From: an uncultured Alphaproteobacteria bacterium
Lineage (GTDB): Bacteria > Pseudomonadota > Alphaproteobacteria > RF32 > CAG-239
DNA length: 64,000 nucleotides
Assembly (NCBI GenBank): GCA_949297145.1
Contig: CASFQO010000013.1
Location: 18,768-82,767, forward strand
Direction: 5' to 3'
The notes below the pieces were generated by a model that saw only the letters and a list, made by a program, of their open reading frames with translations, searched no databases and was not told the DNA's origin. Positions 13,042 to 47,845 of the stretch are shown here, one piece after another; position 1 is the first letter of the stretch; each line of letters opens with the position of its first letter. The position numbers and the translations under genes are program-made.

Positions 13042-15453
13042 ATGGGGCTATATTTGAAAATAAAATGGATTTTTGGGGCTATGCTCAAGTTTTTGCAATT
13101 TGTTCTTTTGTTTTGGCTGTGCCTTATACCATATCATTTGGTCTGGGCTGATACAACCTATGCGCAAAGTGAGCAGGAACTTAAATTTAGCGAGGCAAAC
13201 AAAACTCTTGATGCCATCTTAAAAAGGCTTAAAGAACAAAATATCTCCCATGATGACAGTTATGGTGTTTTACAAGTCTTAAACCAGCTTCAATCACAAA
13301 TATTATCTCAGCAAAAAAGCGACAATGTTATGTATCAATCGCTTAAGCAAAAAATAACGGCTCTTGATGAACTTTCTCTCGGAAGCGGCAAAGATTTGCC
13401 GGAAGTTTCTAAAGAAAGGAAAAATCTCAACGCCGAACTTTCTCTTTATAAAGAAAAATTAGCTCAAGGTGCTTTTATTCTTACTAAAATTGATGAGGCT
13501 AATGCTTTGATTTTTGCTTCGCGCAATCAAGAACTGCTCTCTAATTTGCTCACTAAGCAAAACGCTCTTTTTGAACCACAACAATTTGTTGCTTCGCTTC
13601 ATGGATTTCAGCACTTCTTCTCAGAAGTTTCATCTTCGCCTCGTGTTTGGTATTCGGAATTAACGGCTTATCAAAAAGAACAAATTGCTTATCAGGGATT
13701 TAAGCTACTTATGCTCATGGGCGTGTTGCTTCTCGTGCTGATTTTTTTGAAAAAAATAATCTTAAAGCGCCATATTTCTTTCTATGCAAATCTTATACGT
13801 CCTAACTATCTGCAAAAAATAAAAAATGTTCTCTATATTTTTTTAACGTATGCTCTGATGCCTGTCGTTTTTTTATATGTTTTAAAAATGGCAAGCGTAC
13901 AATTGCTTTTCCAGAACTCCTCTCTTTTTGAGGTTTTGATTGCCAATGCTTTGCTATATCTTTGCTATTTCATCCTCATCAAAGTTTTAATCTACGCTGT
14001 GATTGCACCTGATTTTCCGGAATGGTCATTATTTGAAAATCTTGATGATAAATTTGCCAAACGTATTTATCAAACGCTCATGACAGCTTTGGTGCCTATT
14101 ATGCTTATTGCCTTTTTGCAACGCGTCATTACCCTTTTTCCGATGCAAAACGATATGGTGTATTCTTTTCAGCTCTTAAATAATGCCGTTAAGGCGTTTG
14201 CAATTATATGGGTTGTGCTCCGAATCCTTTACCGCACGCAGGAACTTTCTGATGAAGATGCTAATAATGATGATTTTCAACAACTTTCTTTTTCCTCGCA
14301 GGCTGCGTTGGCGATTGCCTTGTTTATAGGGCTTAGTTTCGGATGTTCGTTATTTGGATATCTTCAATTATCTTCGTATTTAATTAATCATTTTATCCTT
14401 TCGGTGGCTGTGATTGCTCTTATCTATGTCATTAAAAGATTGCTGCTTTTTTTGTACCATTGGTTTGTACATCGAAGATTTTGGATTTCTGCCTTTCGCA
14501 TCCGCCCGAGGACATTACTTAAGAGTGAGATTTGGTTTAATATCCTGCTAACCCCGATTATTTATTGTTTGGCGCTACTCTTTCTTTTAGCCTCTTGGGG
14601 CGTTTCGGTGGATATTCTTTTGGCACGCACAAAAGGGTTTTTAACCGGTTTTCATATCGGCGGTGTTTATGTTTCTATCTCTTCTATTTGCTTGGGAGGA
14701 TTGGCTTTCGGCATCGGGATGCTGCTTGTAAAATTACTTAAAAACAGTTTGATATCCGGCAATCTTAATAAACTTGATTTAGATGAGGGGATGAAAAGCT
14801 CTTTGATTTCGGGAATCGGATTTTTTGGCTTTATCTTTGCGGTTATTTTGGGAATCGCCGTGGCCGGCGGGAGTTTTCGTAGCTTGGCCATTATTGCCGG
14901 AGCTATTTCTTTTGGAGCCGGATTTGGTTTGCAAAATATGGTCAGCAACCTTGCTTCCGGATTGACTATTTTGTTTGAGCGTCCCATAAAAGTCGGGGAT
15001 ACGGTCATTATTAACGGTTTTGAAGGAATCGTTTCTAAAATCAGTATGAGAGCAACGACGCTTGAAACTTCTGATAAATCTAATGTTATTATTCCAAATG
15101 CTCTTATCATTTCCGGCTGTGTGGTTAATAAGACTTATGAAAACAGAATGACGCGCGTGGATATTCGAGTTGGGGTGGACTATAACTGTGATATACAAAA
15201 ACTTAAGCAACTCTTGTTACGAATCGCTCAAGATGATGCGGAAGTCTTGGCTTTTCCGGCCCCTACTCTGGCCTTTCTGGACTTTGGAGACGGGCAACTT
15301 AATTTTGTTCTCAGCTGTTTTACTTCTAACATTACTTTGAGTGCGGGAATGGCGTTTCGGCTTCGCGAAAAAATTATTGATGCGTTCAAAAAAGAGGGTA
15401 TTTCTCTCCCTTATCCGCAGCGTATTGTTCATCTTGAAAAAAATATTTCTTAA
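13042..15453 (+). CDS. Large mechanosensitive channel, MscS/MscK (KefA) family
   Basis: N-terminal signal, coiled-coil periplasmic region, many TM segments, and the MscS core GFGLQNMVSNLASGLTILFERPIKVGDTVII. The start is uncertain (ATG 13042 or 13081). The ORF-track start 12961 overlaps the neighbouring gene's 5' end. Confidence 0.85.
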   Translation: MGLYLKIKWIFGAMLKFLQFVLLFWLCLIPYHLVWADTTYAQSEQELKFSEANKTLDAILKRLKEQNISHDDSYGVLQVLNQLQSQILSQQKSDNVMYQSLKQKITALDELSLGSGKDLPEVSKERKNLNAELSLYKEKLAQGAFILTKIDEANALIFASRNQELLSNLLTKQNALFEPQQFVASLHGFQHFFSEVSSSPRVWYSELTAYQKEQIAYQGFKLLMLMGVLLLVLIFLKKIILKRHISFYANLIRPNYLQKIKNVLYIFLTYALMPVVFLYVLKMASVQLLFQNSSLFEVLIANALLYLCYFILIKVLIYAVIAPDFPEWSLFENLDDKFAKRIYQTLMTALVPIMLIAFLQRVITLFPMQNDMVYSFQLLNNAVKAFAIIWVVLRILYRTQELSDEDANNDDFQQLSFSSQAALAIALFIGLSFGCSLFGYLQLSSYLINHFILSVAVIALIYVIKRLLLFLYHWFVHRRFWISAFRIRPRTLLKSEIWFNILLTPIIYCLALLFLLASWGVSVDILLARTKGFLTGFHIGGVYVSISSICLGGLAFGIGMLLVKLLKNSLISGNLNKLDLDEGMKSSLISGIGFFGFIFAVILGIAVAGGSFRSLAIIAGAISFGAGFGLQNMVSNLASGLTILFERPIKVGDTVIINGFEGIVSKISMRATTLETSDKSNVIIPNALIISGCVVNKTYENRMTRVDIRVGVDYNCDIQKLKQLLLRIAQDDAEVLAFPAPTLAFLDFGDGQLNFVLSCFTSNITLSAGMAFRLREKIIDAFKKEGISLPYPQRIVHLEKNIS

Positions 15454-25092: not shown

Positions 25093-25629
25093 ATGGTTTC
25101 TTATAAGCAATTAACTTTTTGGGTTTTGGCTTTGACCGTTGCCTCTTTTTTTGATGCGCAAGCAGTTGATAAGGTTAAAACTCGTCAAAAATATGGGGCA
25201 GAACTTTCTGCTACAGGTGAGATTTATGCCAAAATTGTCGCTCCGGTTGCAGTGACTTCTTCCAATGATTTACGGTTCGGGACGATTGTAACAAATAACG
25301 CCGGAGATGTTACCGTTGATGAAGCAGGAAACCGAACGACAACCGGTCCGGGGTTGGCGACAAGCGGTTATTCATCAGGAGCTATTCACCTTAGCGGCCC
25401 TAGGGCGCAGGCGGTGTCTGTGGCTATTCCGGGGGCGCACATTTATGACAATGACGATAATTCTATCAATGTTCATTCGTTCACAACGAGCGCAGATAGC
25501 GACAAGCTCATTACGCTAGGCTCGCAAGACGGAAAAGCGGACATCAATGTCGGGGCGACACTCAACGTCTCCGATACGGCAAAAAGTGGTGTTCGTTCAG
25601 GGGTATATCGCATACAAACTTCATACTAA
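25093..25629 (+). CDS. Secreted DUF4402-type putative fibre subunit 1
   Basis: ATG 25093 follows GGGAG. Signal peptide ...FFDAQA, then ATGEIYAKIVAPVAVTSSNDLRFGTIV, with the C-terminus ...SGVYRIQTSY. Confidence 0.7.
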   Translation: MVSYKQLTFWVLALTVASFFDAQAVDKVKTRQKYGAELSATGEIYAKIVAPVAVTSSNDLRFGTIVTNNAGDVTVDEAGNRTTTGPGLATSGYSSGAIHLSGPRAQAVSVAIPGAHIYDNDDNSINVHSFTTSADSDKLITLGSQDGKADINVGATLNVSDTAKSGVRSGVYRIQTSY

Positions 25630-25723: not shown

Positions 25724-26221
25724 ATGATGAAAAAGAATTTACTTTTGACAGTGGCCGTGGCTGTTTTGGCTTTAGGTAGCTCTGCTGCTCAAGCCGCTGA
25801 AGAATCGGCTACAGGAAACATTAAGGCAAAAATTGTTGCTCCGGTTAGCATTTCCGAACAAGATTCTCTTGATTTTGGTACAATGATTGCGCCGACAGAT
25901 ACATCAAAAAAAGTAACTATTGCTACTAATGGTACAAGAAGTGGTGACTCTTCTATTTTAGTTGGAAACGGTGGTCAGGCCGGTTTGTTTAATGTGACAG
26001 GTGCTGATCGTCAATCTATGACTATTTCGGTTACAGATTCTACAACTTTGACAGGTGCCGGTGATCCTATGACCGTTAATAATTTTGTTACAGAACCTGC
26101 CAGCACACTTACTCTTACAGGCACAAGCGGACAAATTAAAGTTGGTGCAGATTTGACTGTCGGTCAAGGACAAGCTGAGGGTGACTATACCGGTACGTAC
26201 GAGGTTACAGTTAGCTACTAA
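25724..26221 (+). CDS. Secreted DUF4402-type putative major fibre subunit 2
   Basis: Signal peptide MMKKNLLLTVAVAVLALGSSAAQA, then ATGNIKAKIVAPVSISEQDSLDFGTMI, with the C-terminus AEGDYTGTYEVTVSY. Confidence 0.75.
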   Translation: MMKKNLLLTVAVAVLALGSSAAQAAEESATGNIKAKIVAPVSISEQDSLDFGTMIAPTDTSKKVTIATNGTRSGDSSILVGNGGQAGLFNVTGADRQSMTISVTDSTTLTGAGDPMTVNNFVTEPASTLTLTGTSGQIKVGADLTVGQGQAEGDYTGTYEVTVSY

Positions 26222-26250
26222 TTTTGGTTTAGTTTATTATTAGGTATGCT

Positions 26251-26274
26251 ACAAAAAAATGACCCTTTTTTATC
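26251..26274. repeat. Left arm of a 24/23-nt inverted repeat
   Basis: ACAAAAAAATGACCCTTTTTTATC. Its reverse complement matches 26379-26401 except for one extra A in the A run. Confidence 0.9.
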
Positions 26275-26350
26275 AGCAGGGCAGTTAAGAAAATGATTGT
26301 AAATTAAATGGGATAAGTCTTTATTCTTGTTAATAAAAAGTTAATCTTAA

Positions 26351-26378
26351 TTGCTTTGGGGAGAAATCTTTTTATATT
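26351..26378 (+). promoter_or_regulatory. Sigma-70-like promoter TTGCTT-16-TATATT inside the IR-bracketed segment, pointing at the downstream genes
   Basis: Hexamers read directly. The predicted transcription start falls inside the right IR arm. Confidence 0.45.
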
Positions 26379-26401
26379 GATAAAAAAGGGTCATTTTTTG
26401 T
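26379..26401. repeat. Right arm of the inverted repeat
   Basis: GATAAAAAAGGGTCATTTTTTGT. It ends 1 nt before GTG 26402 and contains the only RBS-like AAGGG for that gene. Confidence 0.9.
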
Positions 26402-27334
26402 GTGAAAAATATGTTTAGAAGATGTGTCTGTTTTCTTTTATTTACTTCTGTTTTTAAAGTAGCATCGTGTTGGGCTGTTGATGCTGATTATGTTAGTGTT
26501 ATTCAAAATCTAAATTTTGGAACGTTTATACAAACTTCAGAAAATGCTCAAATTGTTTTAGATTATAATGGGGCTGTCTCTAGTTCTTCTGGTATTACGC
26601 TTCTTAAAAATGGCAATGAAGCAAGACTTGAATATGAAGCGGGACGTTGGTCTGCTGCACATCGAATTTATATGCCTGAAGATTTAAGTTTAACTCTTAA
26701 CGCTAATGGTTGTTCTATATTAATTCATAATTTTTCTTTTTCTGCTTCCTCTCTTTATTTTATCATTGCTGGTGCAACTGATGAGGTTTCTGTTGGCGCG
26801 ACATTAGATATTCAAGGATGGTGTAAAGGTTCTAATGGCAGTTTAGTTGATACGCCTTTTACTGCAACTCAAATTATAGCTCCTACTGCTAATTTGGGTT
26901 ATAATGTTGAAACGGCAAATTTACAAATAAATTTTACCATTGAAGAAAAAATTAGTATTACAAATATACAAGATTTAAATTTTGGCTCCATGATGTCTCC
27001 TTCTAGCAATTCTAGTGTAACAATTTCTCTGGATGGGCAAAGACTTTCTACTGGAGGTATTTATTTAATGGAAAACGCTTCTGTAACAAATGGTCTTTTT
27101 ATTATTGATGGGCAGATTGGAAGAACTGTCTATATTAATTTACCAGATAAGGTTCTTATTTATAATGAATATGGTGATACACTAACAGTTGATAATTTTA
27201 TTTCAAACAAAGGTTCTTCCTTTGTTTTGGATGCAAATTCTGTTGATGCTTATATTGGGGCGACTTTAACTGTTCCTCGTAATGCTGCTGAAGGTAATTA
27301 TTCCGGTACGTATACGGTCACGGTTTCTTATTAG
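26402..27334 (+). CDS. Two-module DUF4402-like secreted protein (candidate tip/adhesin subunit)
   Basis: 310 aa with a signal peptide. Each half carries an LNFG(T/S) motif (VIQNLNFGTFI; ITNIQDLNFGSMM). The C-terminus AEGNYSGTYTVTVSY matches the small subunits. The start is GTG 26402 or ATG 26411. Confidence 0.65.
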   Translation: MKNMFRRCVCFLLFTSVFKVASCWAVDADYVSVIQNLNFGTFIQTSENAQIVLDYNGAVSSSSGITLLKNGNEARLEYEAGRWSAAHRIYMPEDLSLTLNANGCSILIHNFSFSASSLYFIIAGATDEVSVGATLDIQGWCKGSNGSLVDTPFTATQIIAPTANLGYNVETANLQINFTIEEKISITNIQDLNFGSMMSPSSNSSVTISLDGQRLSTGGIYLMENASVTNGLFIIDGQIGRTVYINLPDKVLIYNEYGDTLTVDNFISNKGSSFVLDANSVDAYIGATLTVPRNAAEGNYSGTYTVTVSY

Positions 27335-27353: not shown

Positions 27354-28139
27354 ATGTTAAAAAAAATTTGCAAAATCTATCTCTTGTTTTCTGTTCTTAT
27401 GATGCCGACACTTGCTTTTGCTAATATTTCGGTCTTTCCTTATAGTATTGATTTTGAGGCTAATTCAAAAAAGCGCGTGCAAAGTGTGCGTATTATCAAT
27501 ACTTCTCAGGAAACTCAAACGTATCGTGTTTCTATGGTGAATTTTGTGCAGGATGCTAACGGGAAACTTACTGAAACAAAGGACCCCTCTCCTTTTTATG
27601 CCAATAAATATTTAACTTGGTCGCCACGACAGTTTACTCTGAAACCTAATGAGGTGCAAACTATCAATATTGCCCGCAGAAGTTTGGCGCAAGCTCCGGA
27701 TGGGGAATTTGTTTCTCATCTCAAAATTAGCGAGGTTTTGTTGGGTGCGCCTAAGCTCAAAAGTAAAGATGGCGGGCAATCTAACACCATATCCATGCAG
27801 TTGCGCGCTCTTTTTGCTATCACTATTCCGGTTACCATTACCAAGGGGGATAACCTCTTTAGTAAAACGGAAGTGGTTAGCTATAAATTATTGCCTAACA
27901 ATCAACTCAACCTGGTCTTAAAGCGTTTGGGGAACAAATCTTCCCGCTTTAATGTGGTTGTTGCGGATCAAAAGGATAAAGATATCGGGAGGGTTAACGG
28001 ATTGAAGATTTATATGTCTACGGACACGCTCTCGGTCAATGTACCTCTTGATAAAAATGTTCAAATAAAAAATGCGGTTTTGAAACTTGAAGATGCTAAA
28101 ACGAAGGAAGAAATATTGCGGAAGGCTATATCGCTATAG
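27354..28139 (+). CDS. PapD-like periplasmic pilus chaperone
   Basis: Signal peptide ...PTLAFA, then NISVFPYSIDFEANSKKRVQSVRIINTSQETQTYRVSMVNF and WSPRQFTLKPNEVQTINI, which fit the two-Ig-domain chaperone pattern. 261 aa. Confidence 0.7.
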   Translation: MLKKICKIYLLFSVLMMPTLAFANISVFPYSIDFEANSKKRVQSVRIINTSQETQTYRVSMVNFVQDANGKLTETKDPSPFYANKYLTWSPRQFTLKPNEVQTINIARRSLAQAPDGEFVSHLKISEVLLGAPKLKSKDGGQSNTISMQLRALFAITIPVTITKGDNLFSKTEVVSYKLLPNNQLNLVLKRLGNKSSRFNVVVADQKDKDIGRVNGLKIYMSTDTLSVNVPLDKNVQIKNAVLKLEDAKTKEEILRKAISL

Positions 28140-31086
28140 TTTACTATTTCTTTTGCTTGGCGCCTTCTTTTCTCCGTGGGGCAAAGCCGAAGATTTAACC
28201 GATTATAGTGAAGATCCTCTTATCTTGGAACCTATTATTCAGGGTTTCAATTTAGATGATTATGCCTATGTTTATGAAAAAAACACTAAGCAATATATTT
28301 CTTTGCCGCAAATTGCATCTTATTTGGGAATTAAGTATTCTCTTTCTGATAATGTCATTCGCGGCTATTGGGTCAATACACCGGATAAACCGTTTGTTAT
28401 CAATCTCAATAGCTATACCGTTGAACAAGATGGCGAAGTTACACCTTTTGCTACTAATGAAGTGATTGTGGTTGATAACACTATCTTTTTTGCAGCTGAT
28501 TTCTATATCCGTGTGCTCCATATCAATATTAAGATTGACTCACTTAATATGCAGATGTTGATTACGGCACAAGATGAATTTCCGACTACTCTTAAGCGTA
28601 AAGCGGAGAAAAAAAGAGGCAAAAATAATTTTTCATTCAGAAAAGACAGTTTCAAAAATTATGAATTCGATAACCGTTGGTTTGGCGCTCCGGTGGTTGA
28701 TTTAACCCTCGGAAAAGGCTGGAGCCGCTATGATAGCGTTGATAAGAGTTTTAACAGTGATTCTTATTCTTTGAATGTGGCTATGCTCGCGGCCGGATTG
28801 GATGTTAATGCGTATATTTTTGGAGATTCATATAATGACAGGCAGCCGAGAATCCGCTTAACCGGCAGCAGAACTTTTTTGGATGAACCGGGAAATGCGC
28901 TTAACCTGAAAACATTAAAAGTTGGTGATATCAGCGGGCTTAATTCTTCTTATTTTGCAGATGCATCTTATGGACGAGGTGTTGCGGTCAGCAGCTTTAA
29001 AAACTTAGTTATGTCCGCGAATAAAACAATTGATATTACCGGTCCGCTTTTAGATGGGTGGCAGGTTGAGCTCTATTGGAACGAACAATTGGTTGGATAT
29101 CGTCAAAGCGGTGTGAACGGGCAATATAACTTCCCCGATATTCCGGTTTCGTATGGCTTAAATACGTTTAAACTCGTTTTTTATGGACCTTATGGTGAAA
29201 CACGGACTGAATATGAGCGCTATTATTCCGGTACAAGTCCGGTTAAAAAAGGTGAATTCGGATATACGGCTTCTGCTTATCAACCTTATAGATATCTCTT
29301 TGAAAATAATGAGCCGTTCACTTATAGCGGTGACGATACACCAGTGCTCGATTTTACCGGTTATTATGGTGCCACGGATCATTTGACACTTATGGGCGGT
29401 TTGACGCAAACGCCCGATGCTGAAACGGGAACGGAAACTCAACGTTTTGCTATGGCCGGTGCACAAGTTGCCGTTAAAGGTAGCTCTTTACAATACAACT
29501 TAGAGCAAAATTTGGATACGGATGATTTTGCCCATCACGCAGAATGGCAAGGCGACGTCTATATCGGGTCTATCTATGCCGGATATGATAAATTTAATAA
29601 TATTCACTCGCCGGTTTCTTTTTATGGTGATGAGTATTTAGATGAGCAATTTGAAGCTCGTTTATCCGGTATGTTACCATGGAGAGTGCCGTATTATTTG
29701 AGTTGGCGGCAGGGAACTCTTGAAAGCGATGAAACGTCTTTTAATAATGTTACGGCCAGACTTTCTAAACAGTTGATGAATAGCTTGAATTTGACTTTAG
29801 AAGATAGCTATTACGACTATAACAGCTCTCGCGGTGCTTATAATACCGTACGCTTCGGCGCTTATAAATGGTGGGGAGATTTTTCTTCTGAAACTTGGTT
29901 GACGTATGAAACCTCTCCAGAATCCCGCTTTACGGAATTTTCAACACGTCTTGATTGGCGAACCGGACGAAATACTTATCTTTCCGGAAAATATACTCGC
30001 AACTTAATTGAAGATATGGATTATCTCTCTTTTTCGGGCGGACAAATCTTTCCTTTCGGCGGATTGACGGCCACCCTTGAATTTGATCGAGATTTTAATA
30101 TCAGTTCCTATCTGACTTATAATATCAGCTTTGCTAAGGCGCCGAATTCTATGGATGTGATTACTTCGGCTAACTCAAAACTCAGTAATACCGGTACGAT
30201 GTATGTTCAGGCAACCGATGAGTCCGGTCAACCTTTGGAGGGTATTGGCCTTAACGCTAATGGCTTGGAAAAAGAAATTTATACGGATGAAAATGGTGTA
30301 GCGGTTTTGACCGATTTGCAAACTTATGAAAAAACGGTACTTAACGTTGATACGGAAACGCTATTGGATATTGCATTGCAACCGGTTTATGATGAGAAAA
30401 AGTTAGTTTTAAGACCGGGAACTATCCGAACTGTTTCTATTCCGTTTACGCATCGGGGTGCGGTTGAAGGTAAAATTGAAAACATTGATGATACGCGTAT
30501 GTTTGGATACCAAATTATTGCGCTTGATGCGGACAATAAAGAAATTGCTTCCACTTTTGCTGATATTGAGGGTTTCTTTATCTTGGATGCGGTTCCTTAT
30601 GGAACATATAAAATTGTTATCTCTAAAGATGGAAATCAACTGGCTGAATTGCAAGATGTTAAAGTTGATGATGTTTCTATCTATCTTCCTGATGAGATTA
30701 AACTTGATAAAAAAGCTCTTGATTTCTTTGCTGAAAAAGATAGTGCGGATGAACTTCAATTTGTAGAAGAACAACATGATCTCGGCTATAATAATGTTGA
30801 CTACAGAAACAGAGATTTACCTATAGATATTCCTCAAGCGGTTTCTGAGCCTCAACCGCATATGCCTAAAATTCAAATTGAAGAAATTGAAAAAGATATT
30901 TTTGTGCAGACTGAAGCTCCGGTCTTTCAATCTGTTGCTTCCGTACAATCTTTTGATAGATACACAACCGTGCAAGATATTGAAAAAGGTATTTTCGCGG
31001 TAGCAACTCAGAATAGTTCTGTTTCTTATATTCTGCATGACTTGGAATATAATGTTGCACTTCAAGATGTTTTGGAAAAAGAATAG
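28093..31086 (+). CDS. Large outer-membrane usher-like protein
   Basis: About 998 aa; it overlaps the chaperone gene by about 47 nt. After the signal peptide, the N-terminus LILEPIIQGFNLDDYAYVY...YISLPQIASYLGI resembles an usher N-terminal domain. The middle is long and Tyr/Gly/Asp-rich, as for a beta-barrel. Two CarboxypepD_reg-like beta-sandwich modules follow (MYVQATDESGQPLEG...; GAVEGKIEN...GFFILDAVPYGTYKIVI). Confidence 0.6.
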   Translation: MLKRRKKYCGRLYRYSLLFLLLGAFFSPWGKAEDLTDYSEDPLILEPIIQGFNLDDYAYVYEKNTKQYISLPQIASYLGIKYSLSDNVIRGYWVNTPDKPFVINLNSYTVEQDGEVTPFATNEVIVVDNTIFFAADFYIRVLHINIKIDSLNMQMLITAQDEFPTTLKRKAEKKRGKNNFSFRKDSFKNYEFDNRWFGAPVVDLTLGKGWSRYDSVDKSFNSDSYSLNVAMLAAGLDVNAYIFGDSYNDRQPRIRLTGSRTFLDEPGNALNLKTLKVGDISGLNSSYFADASYGRGVAVSSFKNLVMSANKTIDITGPLLDGWQVELYWNEQLVGYRQSGVNGQYNFPDIPVSYGLNTFKLVFYGPYGETRTEYERYYSGTSPVKKGEFGYTASAYQPYRYLFENNEPFTYSGDDTPVLDFTGYYGATDHLTLMGGLTQTPDAETGTETQRFAMAGAQVAVKGSSLQYNLEQNLDTDDFAHHAEWQGDVYIGSIYAGYDKFNNIHSPVSFYGDEYLDEQFEARLSGMLPWRVPYYLSWRQGTLESDETSFNNVTARLSKQLMNSLNLTLEDSYYDYNSSRGAYNTVRFGAYKWWGDFSSETWLTYETSPESRFTEFSTRLDWRTGRNTYLSGKYTRNLIEDMDYLSFSGGQIFPFGGLTATLEFDRDFNISSYLTYNISFAKAPNSMDVITSANSKLSNTGTMYVQATDESGQPLEGIGLNANGLEKEIYTDENGVAVLTDLQTYEKTVLNVDTETLLDIALQPVYDEKKLVLRPGTIRTVSIPFTHRGAVEGKIENIDDTRMFGYQIIALDADNKEIASTFADIEGFFILDAVPYGTYKIVISKDGNQLAELQDVKVDDVSIYLPDEIKLDKKALDFFAEKDSADELQFVEEQHDLGYNNVDYRNRDLPIDIPQAVSEPQPHMPKIQIEEIEKDIFVQTEAPVFQSVASVQSFDRYTTVQDIEKGIFAVATQNSSVSYILHDLEYNVALQDVLEKE

Positions 31087-46348: not shown

Positions 46349-47731
46349 TTAAAACGGAAATTTGTTGTTAAACCCGCCAAAGGAATTTCCCCCGAACGGA
46401 TTGTTTTTCATAAAACGGGTTGCAAGAGAGTTCATCCCCCCCAGCTTTCCCATTCTTTTCATCATGGTTGACATTTGCTCATAGGATTTAAGCAACTTGT
46501 TAACTTCATGAACTTCTACACCGGCTCCGGCGGCTATTCTTTTTTTGCGGGAGGCTTTGATAATATCCGGATTGCGGCGCTCGCCCTTGGTCATAGACAA
46601 GATAATTGCCTCTTGTCTTTTCATCATTGCATCTGCATTTGCCGCTTCTATTTGTTCTTTATATTTACTTAATCCGGGAAGCATCCCCATTATATTGGAT
46701 ACGGAGCCCAATTTCTTCATCTGGCGAATTTGATTGAGCATGTCCTCTAAATCAAATTTGCCTTTCATCATCTTTTTGGCCATAGCTTCTGTTTCTTCTT
46801 TATCCAGATTTTCTACGGCTTTTTCTACAAGGCTGACAACATCACCTTTGTCTAATATTCTGCCGGCTAGTCTATCAGCATGAAATTCTTCTAAATCTTC
46901 TAATTTTTCACCGGTTCCCAAGAACTTTAACGGCGCTCCGGAAACCATCTTCATGGATAATGCGGCACCGGCACGAGATGAACCGTCTATTCTGGTCAAA
47001 ACTAACCCGGTAATACCGACTTTTTCATTAAATTCTTTTGCAACATTGCAGGCTTCTTGCCCGATAAGAGAATCGGCTACCAACAAAGTTTCGGTCGGGT
47101 TAGCCAACTTCTTAACCGCGGCCACTTCGTCCATTAATTTTTCATCTATTTGTAAACGGCCGGCCGTATCCAAAATCAAAACATCATAAACACCTTTTTG
47201 ACCGGCAGCTATTGCGCGTTTGGTTATTTCTAACGGCTTTTCTCCGGCAACTATCGGCAGAACATCAACATTGATTTGTTTTCCTAACTGTGCCAGTTGT
47301 TCTTGGGCTGCGGGACGGTAAACGTCTAAAGATGCCATTAACACACGTTTATTCTTTTTTAATTTTAAGGCTATCTTTGCAGATGTGGTCGTTTTACCGG
47401 AACCTTGCAGACCTACCATTAAAATAACCGCCGGCGGAACGGCTTTGAAATTTAATTCCGTATTATCACCACCCAACAGCTCTATCAACTCGTCATAAAC
47501 AATTTTTACAAGTTGCTGATCTGGGCGGATGGATTTAATTACTTTTTCGCCAAGAGCTTTTTCTTTTACTCTGGCCATAAATTCTTTAACAACACTCAAG
47601 GAAACATCTGCTTCCAATAATGCTAAGCGAATCTCTCTTAAACCCTCTTCAATATCCTTTTCTTTAAGGACACCGCGAGAGCCTAAACGACTGAATATGT
47701 CACTCAACTTTGTTGTTAATGCGTCAAACAT
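46349..47731 (-). CDS. ffh: Signal recognition particle protein Ffh
   Basis: GLQGSGKTTT, DTAGR and the Met-rich M domain. Confidence 0.97.
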   Translation of the reverse strand: MFDALTTKLSDIFSRLGSRGVLKEKDIEEGLREIRLALLEADVSLSVVKEFMARVKEKALGEKVIKSIRPDQQLVKIVYDELIELLGGDNTELNFKAVPPAVILMVGLQGSGKTTTSAKIALKLKKNKRVLMASLDVYRPAAQEQLAQLGKQINVDVLPIVAGEKPLEITKRAIAAGQKGVYDVLILDTAGRLQIDEKLMDEVAAVKKLANPTETLLVADSLIGQEACNVAKEFNEKVGITGLVLTRIDGSSRAGAALSMKMVSGAPLKFLGTGEKLEDLEEFHADRLAGRILDKGDVVSLVEKAVENLDKEETEAMAKKMMKGKFDLEDMLNQIRQMKKLGSVSNIMGMLPGLSKYKEQIEAANADAMMKRQEAIILSMTKGERRNPDIIKASRKKRIAAGAGVEVHEVNKLLKSYEQMSTMMKRMGKLGGMNSLATRFMKNNPFGGNSFGGFNNKFPF

Positions 47732-47763: not shown

Positions 47764-47804
47764 AAAAAAAATTGCGCCAGTGTGCGAACCCTCGCTGACT
47801 GACG
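47764..47804 (-). terminator. Intrinsic-terminator-like two-tier hairpin plus U8 inside the ffh leader
   Basis: The minus strand reads CGTCAGT-CA-GCGA-GGGT-TCGC-ACA-ACTGGCG-CAA-TTTTTTTT. It lies between a good promoter (47846-47873) and the ffh start codon. Confidence 0.5.
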
Positions 47805-47845
47805 GCACTCCGTAGAGTGTTATTTTTTTACTTAAATCTGCCTAG

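Follow-up and report, generated by a model that had tools for sequence, protein, structure and literature searches.

The window considered here, a stretch of DNA of 64,000 nt from an uncultured gut alphaproteobacterium, encodes on its forward strand a pilus operon that contains a short intergenic element, which we interpret below as an inversion switch. Upstream of this element lie two genes for DUF4402 pilin-like subunits, the first encoding a protein of 178 aa as called (positions 25097-25629; Pfam PF14352, E of 6e-20) and the second, which is directly upstream of the switch, a protein of 165 aa (25724-26221; PF14352, E of 6e-27). The first gene past the switch (26411-27334) encodes a two-domain DUF4402 protein of 307 aa, in which two stretches match PF14352 (E of 2e-39) and which we regard as a putative tip adhesin. 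This gene is followed by those for a PapD-like periplasmic chaperone of 261 aa (27354-28139) and for an usher-like outer-membrane protein of 997 aa (28093-31086), the start of which overlaps the end of the chaperone gene. The chaperone was assigned from an AlphaFold2 model with a pLDDT of 89.4 and from a homologue, P0068, that carries PF00345. The best PDB folds for this model were CsuC and CfaA, followed by Caf1M, FimC and PapD (E of ~1e-10, probability of 1.00), and the 261-aa protein is accordingly modeled as a pilus chaperone of PapD/CsuC-like fold. The 997-aa protein itself matches a CarboxypepD_reg domain only, and its homologues P0101, P0103 and P0105, which are 55% identical, carry the Usher domain PF00577; comparison of the protein and of the usher family profile with PDB sequences yielded no match to solved structures. 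Taken together, the chaperone fold and the presence of PF00577 in the homologues indicate that the tip, chaperone and usher labels applied to these genes in an earlier note on this DNA are reasonable, for what would be a very divergent system. No mention of the DUF4402 family was found in the literature searched, an NCBIfam search returned nothing informative, and no relative of the tip protein was found among genome contigs.

Using the neighboring CNNM gene as a query, we retrieved 41 related loci, of which 40 are from metagenome-assembled genomes of uncultured Alphaproteobacteria and the farthest, at 30% identity, is from a Sphingobacteriales genome. Judging by their record titles, the relatives come from gut sources and include UMGS1453, 'Acetobacter sp. 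46_36', MGBC and the ruminant RGIG and RUG genomes (rumen, colon or rectum). The lineage is probably the order named RF32 in GTDB. In many of the related species the pilus operon lies between CNNM and pyrG, and in others it is missing. Where the operon is present, the tip protein is 32-42% identical between strains or species with chaperones that are 82-99% identical (window, L023, L024, L025, L026 and L060); the neighboring pilin is conserved as well in L026 and L060, at 99-100% identity. From the sequences, this divergence looks like the outcome of allelic replacement or of diversifying selection on the adhesin. A separate rearrangement was observed in L022 (11354-13007 of CALXWH010000006.1, a GTDB species representative), where residues 1-94 of subunit 1 are fused to residues 535-999 of the usher and ~4.9 kb are lacking, which comprise the second pilin, the switch, and the tip and chaperone genes. 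The deletion may have arisen naturally as a loss of this part of the locus, or it may be an artifact of assembling the genome bin.

Within the intergenic DNA between the pilin stop at 26221 and the tip-gene start at 26411, a repeat finder identified perfect inverted arms at 26254-26275 (AAAAAATGACCCTTTTTTATCA) and 26378-26399 (TGATAAAAAAGGGTCATTTTTT), which are 22 nt long and 100% complementary. The arms are separated by 102 nt, and arms and segment together form an element of 146 bp (26254-26399). An inverted repeat of 24 and 23 nt had been described at this place, and it corresponds to the perfect 22-nt arms extended over a single A/T homopolymer length difference. The segment that this repeat was said to bracket also exists, with the qualification that in the perfect-arm version it measures 102 bp (26276-26377, annotated without strand) rather than 104 bp; it contains no gene. 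The pair of arms is the sole long-range inverted repeat of at least 18 nt within the 64 kb, and the 22-mer arm is found at two sites only in the window when up to 3 mismatches are allowed, compared with 0 matches in 100 shuffles. Copies of the inverted repeat elsewhere were found neither in the remainder of the 64-kb window nor in the flanks of 62 loci.

Each arm sits within a dyad-symmetric site of ~32 bp, in which A/T-tract arms surround an asymmetric 6-bp core, TGACCC. The left site (26247-26278; TGCTACAAAAAAA-TGACCC-TTTTTTATCAGCA) has its core at 26260-26265 and includes the perfect arm at 26254-26275, and the right site (26375-26406; TATTGATAAAAAA-GGGTCA-TTTTTTGTGTGAA) has its core at 26388-26393 and includes the perfect arm at 26378-26399; neither site carries a strand. 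The switch occupies the same place in species with usher identity of just 57-83%, and the architecture of the sites is kept. The core varies among species, yet positions 2-6 are identical between the partner sites of every locus, while position 1 is frequently mismatched (L013, L023, L026, L024 and L035). For example, the sites of L054 have perfect 32-nt arms (TGCTATAAAAAAA-TGATCC-TTTTTTTGTAGCA) with GGATCA as the partner core, the cores of L035 are CGTTCC paired with GGAACA, and those of L028 and L059 are CGACCC paired with GGGTCG, the right site being a perfect 14-6-14 dyad. Conservation in orthologous loci, which the earlier note had listed among the points to check, is seen as a site architecture that recurs in diverged species with cores that co-vary between left and right. 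No further switch with an A5-N6-T5 layout was found besides the present one in all retrieved loci. A search of metagenome contigs with the pattern AAAAAATGACCCTTTTTT, which is insufficiently specific, returned at least 120 single unrelated matches, and among the matches listed none was this locus or had a second site. Core-to-core distances of 119, 128, 128, 130 and 139 bp were recorded for the window (26260/26388) and for L054, L035, L028, L024, L025 and L060; these distances step by ~10 bp, so that both sites would keep the same helix face, although the sample is small.

The segment had also been reported to bear a forward-facing promoter, TTGCTT-16-TATATT. Both hexamers are indeed present in that direction at 26351-26378 on the forward strand, where they occupy the right end of the segment and face the tip gene, and their match to the consensus (8/12) is below the threshold of a promoter scan; the element is treated here as a putative sigma-70-type promoter. 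The -10 hexamer of this element extends into the inner half of the right site. When the segments of 8 loci were oriented alike and aligned, they shared three blocks, which are a central motif, the -35 block (TTGCTT, TTGCCT or TTTACT) and the -10 block (TATATT, TATTGT or TATGCT), the last of which straddles the boundary between segment and site. The 16-17 nt between the hexamers are unconserved across these 8 loci, and the combination of conserved hexamers with an unconserved spacer is the pattern expected of a promoter. The distant segments of L054, L035, L028 and L059 aligned better to the window when reversed than in the forward direction. The central motif (26313-26336, annotated without strand; ATAAGTCTTTATTCTTGTTAATAA) spans columns 10-25 of the segment alignment, lies 14 nt upstream of the -35 hexamer, and appears on the opposite strand in L054, L035, L028 and L059 as TTATCAACA..TATAA. 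The motif may act as an UP element, or it may bind an activator or an architectural DNA-bending protein.

Two further claims concerned the boundary between the right arm and the tip gene, namely that the arm ends 1 nt before the start codon and that it contributes AAGGG (26385-26389) as the Shine-Dalgarno sequence. Both are probably wrong. The start that is conserved, and that the gene caller selected, is the ATG at 26411 (MFRR..., 307 aa) rather than the GTG at 26402, which is in frame in the window strain only. With the start at 26411, AAGGG lies 21 nt upstream, which is too distant for a ribosome-binding site and makes this role unlikely.

To find the element in other genomes, exact pilin and tip protein sequences were looked up in public assemblies, which gave 17 places; a look-up of the 482-aa tRNA synthetase as called in the window returned no record. 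L011 (ENA ERZ16268241), a scaffold of 112 kb, has the same arms as the window, and the 102 nt that they enclose are present as the precise reverse complement. BLAST of L011 against the window aligned 146 nt at 100% on the opposite strand within a 6.9-kb locus that is 98.5% identical, and L011, which belongs to the same strain group as the window, is likewise flipped relative to L008-L010. A homologous segment of 113 bp is flipped in a sister species, where L024 differs in orientation from L025 and L060 (158 nt at 95.6% in reverse, with flanks that are ~88% identical). The inverted orientation that the earlier note proposed to seek in related metagenomes thus occurs both in the same strain group and in a sister species, and these flipped copies are independent, as they come from two lineages and different studies. 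Among complete contigs, 12 have the window orientation and 2 are flipped.

Incomplete contigs also mark the switch. The contig of L007 ends with the last base of the left arm (...TTTTTTATCA; window position 26275), and that of L015 starts with the first base of the right arm (TGATAAAAAAGGG; window position 26378). Three more contigs have ends at the switch, with L006 stopping 8 nt into the segment and L014 and L017 beginning within it. L007 and L014 are two big scaffolds from one sample that are split at the switch. A contig break at the point where two orientations diverge would be expected from the assembly graph of a mixed population, which suggests that both orientations were present in a single sample. 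We conclude that the inverted repeat is a genuine DNA inversion switch, both orientations of which occur in natural gut samples.

The contrary position is that there is no programmed switch, and that the flipped copies reflect assembly errors, rare RecA-mediated inversion at a chance repeat, or a miniature transposable element. The low number of complete flipped contigs (2 versus 12) fits this position, as does the lack of a recombinase nearby (see below). However, the k-mers used in final assembly rounds are longer than the arms of 22-24 nt, and reads should therefore be needed to support a flipped path; moreover, the flips arose independently in two lineages from different studies, contig breakpoints fall exactly at the arm boundaries, and the position and site architecture are the same across species with ushers that are 57-83% identical. 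Miniature inverted-repeat transposable elements are expected in many genomic copies and with target-site duplications. The present element is a single copy in the 64-kb window with none elsewhere in the flanks of 62 loci, and it has no target-site duplication, its flanks GGTATGCTAC and GTGTGAAAAA not being direct repeats, so a transposable element was rejected. We consequently give the absence of a programmed switch next to no credence.

The direction of the predicted promoter provides a means of assigning states to the two orientations of the inversion switch. It faces the tip gene in the window and in L001-L005, L008-L010, L012, L013, L016, L023, L025, L026 and L060. In L011, L024, L028, L059, L189, L190, L054 and L035 it points instead toward the pilin gene, at its 3' end. 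Because the putative promoter of the window faces the tip, chaperone and usher genes, we infer that the window is in the ON state, an assignment that, like promoter activity itself, is drawn from the sequence. By this assignment, all four contigs of the L028 lineage, together with L054 and L035, would be OFF. This excess of the OFF state plausibly fits a phase-variable pilus, and it would equally fit a wrong assignment of ON and OFF.

Several individual loci depart from the common arrangement of sites. L035 (mouse gut MGBC103325) contains three like sites within 14069-14313, with site A (14069-14100) inverted relative to B (14152-14183) and direct relative to C (14280-14313), which could represent a relic duplication or a two-segment switch. 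L016 (~1270-1290; ENA ERZ16268139) has a left arm that lacks 2 bases of the T-tract (ATGACCCTTTTATCA) and a right arm with the sequence TGATAGAAAAGGG; this switch may be damaged and locked, or the difference may be a homopolymer error. In L028 (12806-12829), L059, L189 and L190, which constitute the 'Acetobacter sp. 46_36'/UMGS1453 lineage, the left-site arms are TTTAAA (ATTTAAA-CGACCCC-TTTAAAT) and the right site has an A-tract. One orientation is present in 4/4 of these contigs, and switching may be locked or biased in this lineage. L013 (2810-3000) resembles L004/L026 in its outer flanks and in the left arm's outer half, and it shares with the window strain an identical segment and identical inner halves of the arms, a mosaic which suggests inter-strain recombination at or around the switch.

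The earlier note offered two readings of the repeat, of which the first, a fimS-like invertible promoter, is supported by the flipped copies, the breaks at the arm boundaries, the promoter hexamers that are conserved and move with the segment, and the chaperone/usher-like genes downstream. The second held that the repeat is mainly a long-range mRNA stem that stabilizes or terminates the pilin transcript and hides the next start region, in which case inversion would be incidental. RNA folding is partly in line with this second reading, as the sense RNA in the window orientation is predicted to form a stable fold of -56.7 kcal/mol (z of -6.0, far more stable than shuffled sequence) with the arms pairing, compared with -36.0 kcal/mol (z of -1.7) for the flipped orientation. 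The arms also co-vary among species, as pairing would need. However, the segment is flipped in two lineages, and the arms in L004/L026, L013 and L023 differ non-compensatorily, including a C opposite an A. Furthermore, dyad-symmetric arms around an asymmetric core fit a site for a protein dimer and are needless for a stem, and in L185, a distant operon that lacks the repeat, 24 nt separate the pilin gene from the tip gene. No terminator-like hairpin with a T-run was found on the sense strand in either orientation, Rfam gave no match at the switch at E up to 1, and the likely start codon is 12 nt beyond the perfect arm, which ends at 26399. These results weaken the mRNA-stem reading, which is not needed to account for the primary function and which we consider very unlikely in that role. 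A stem would still form in read-through transcripts and may have a secondary effect; because it would form in pilin read-through but not in transcripts from the switch promoter, one could speculate that it uncouples both transcript classes.

Read-through also bears on how strictly an inverting promoter would act. With co-directional pilin genes upstream and no terminator before the tip gene, read-through in the OFF state could express the downstream genes, and the switch could thus be a modulator instead of a strict on/off device. An alternative is that the segment inverts but acts on read-through from the pilin promoter, with one orientation forming an RNA structure that attenuates the transcript entering the tip, chaperone and usher genes, causes it to be processed or blocks its translation. 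The cwpV and flgB switches act on read-through in this manner, without a promoter in the segment. The location of the switch mid-operon amid co-directional genes would suit such a mechanism, as would the far greater stability of the RNA in the window orientation (-56.7 versus -36.0 kcal/mol) and the weakness of the candidate promoter, which matches 8/12 consensus positions. On the other hand, neither orientation has a hairpin and T-run on the sense strand, and across species both promoter hexamers are conserved and keep a fixed distance from each other while the spacer sequence varies, which a purely structural RNA would not predict. We therefore judge action through read-through alone to be unlikely and prefer inversion of a promoter.

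We also searched for the enzyme responsible for inversion of the segment. The statement that no recombinase gene is present in the window was borne out by Pfam searches of its ORFs, by phmmer and by a motif check. In the region from 4.1 kb before the window to ~9 kb past its end, ~78 kb in total, no recombinase was found using Pfam on ORFs and the Pfam tables of the flanking contigs. Likewise, phmmer searches of every ORF in the window and in 62 loci, for which approximate XerD, FimB and Hin sequences served as queries, found no recombinase at the locus, and no H-x-x-R...Y motif was found in the seven window proteins without Pfam matches. Across the 41 related genomes, no recombinase was found within 10 kb of the locus except for a Hin-like gene in a species that lacks the operon. 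This serine recombinase gene (L032, 1607-2227; phmmer E of 1.5e-13) lies 8 kb upstream of CNNM. A second target site was not found in the ~78 kb either. The lack of a recombinase gene within ~78 kb suggests that the enzyme is unlinked. Unlinked recombinases have precedent in the serine recombinase Mpi of Bacteroides fragilis and the tyrosine recombinase RecV of Clostridioides difficile, whose genes lie apart from the promoter or leader that is inverted (PMC5903667). The present lineage belongs to another phylum. Both Mpi and RecV operate in gut bacteria and control surface structures, and the present repeat is presumably unrelated to their sites.

The form of the sites gives some indication of enzyme type. 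Like the sites of XerCD (dif, 11-6-11) and loxP (13-8-13), the present sites, at ~13-6-13, have inverted arms around a short asymmetric center. In core sites of tyrosine recombinases, the asymmetric center gives polarity and must match between partners. In the present sites core positions 2-6 always match, whereas position 1 often differs between partners, which distinguishes them from dif and loxP; in sequence, we take them to be dissimilar to dif. The arm-6 bp-arm layout and the matching of the asymmetric core between partners lead us to favor a tyrosine recombinase by a slight margin over other types of enzyme. A 12-2-12 layout of the serine-invertase type is possible. In L054, a serine-type 2-bp crossover would be centered on the palindrome AT, which would yield a site without polarity. 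The Hin and Gin systems have an invertase gene and an enhancer in or beside the segment and use 26-bp crossover sites of 12-2-12 form. A system of this kind was rejected, as the 102-bp segment holds no gene and the Hin phmmer search was empty at the locus.

Comparison with known switches places the element among familiar devices and sets it apart in several respects. It shares with fimS of Escherichia coli type 1 fimbriae (FimB/FimE), mrp of Proteus and mad of Photorhabdus a short intergenic segment flanked by inverted repeats, with a promoter that is putative here; in those systems the orientation of the segment determines whether chaperone-usher pilus genes are expressed, which results in phase variation, and the same is proposed here. 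fimS precedes the major pilin gene, and fimB and fimE adjoin it. By contrast, the present switch lies downstream of both pilin genes, between these and the tip, chaperone and usher genes, with no recombinase within ~78 kb, and the pilus proteins are DUF4402 proteins and a very distant chaperone and usher rather than Fim homologues. With 22-nt arms and a 102-bp segment, it is also much shorter than fimS, which has 9-bp repeats and a segment of ~296 bp, and than the mad switch of 266 bp (PMC5903667). The lack of an adjacent recombinase, the different repeats and the position downstream of the pilin genes place the switch outside the fimS/FimBE family. The operon resembles those of archaic (Csu) and alternate (CFA/I) chaperone-usher pili in the predicted CsuC/CfaA-like fold of its chaperone and in the gene order of pilins, tip, chaperone and usher, and it differs from them in the ~15% identity of the chaperone and in its DUF4402 pilins. 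Surveys have found invertons to be widespread and often beside genes for surface structures (PMC11602134; PMC11892184), so the kind of device is well known.

Taken together, we consider it highly probable that 26254-26399 is an inverton, a site-specific switch by DNA inversion, and that it lies within the DUF4402 chaperone-usher-like pilus operon described above; on the sequence evidence it most likely turns the assembly genes of this uncharacterized pilus on and off. We propose that recombination between the two inverted sites of ~32 bp, each with A-tract arms around a TGACCC core, flips the 102-bp segment with its outward-facing putative promoter. In the window orientation (ON), the promoter would fire across the right site into the genes for the tip adhesin, chaperone and usher. 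In the flipped orientation (OFF), the assembly genes would be left without a promoter of their own, and transcription antisense to the pilin gene may occur, with a conceivable effect on that gene. The inversion would be catalyzed by an unlinked recombinase, probably of the tyrosine type. A more elaborate model is a two-way toggle, in which one orientation drives the assembly genes and the other runs antisense into the pilins, so that no unchaperoned pilin would be made. Inversion of so small a segment would then need a DNA-bending protein at the central motif as well as helical phasing, as suggested by the spacings of 119, 128, 130 and 139 bp, and could be carried out by a housekeeping Xer-like enzyme or an unrecognized recombinase, in view of the dif-like arm-6 bp-arm sites and the lack of a linked dedicated gene. 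We hold this combination, taken as a whole, to be doubtful.

What is new in the simpler promoter-inversion proposal is the presence of an inversion switch in an uncultured lineage that is known from metagenome-assembled genomes only, and in an unstudied pilus family. Its mid-operon position and very short segment are unusual, and its apparently unlinked enzyme is a further notable feature. The mechanism itself is classical, and the gain therefore concerns where such a switch operates rather than a new principle. A phase-variation switch would imply that the pilus is under on/off selection in the gut, with which the hypervariable tip protein agrees. In addition, the 146-bp element is a clonable substrate for finding the recombinase, and the case illustrates that an inversion can be proven from nothing more than public assemblies, by contigs in the flipped orientation together with contig ends that fall at the repeat.

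Two minor observations concern related lineages and the remainder of the window. In sister lineages that lack the inverted repeat, the tip gene is preceded by TTG and then by 14-35 consecutive A residues. Such poly-A tracts lie at 5377-5395 in L039, at 13461-13489 in L048, which also has a second tract, at 12632-12648 in L052, and at position 1 in L191, L194 and L195; the pilin genes of L039, L048 and L052 are divergent. The last three loci are independent contigs that begin in or beside the tract. The tracts may provide phase variation by strand slippage at the regulatory point that the switch occupies elsewhere, or the observation may simply reflect homopolymer trouble in assembly. Finally, Rfam matched an ffh sRNA at 47767-47810 on the reverse strand of the window, with 38.7 bits against a gathering score of 35, beside the SRP54 gene at 46349-47731.
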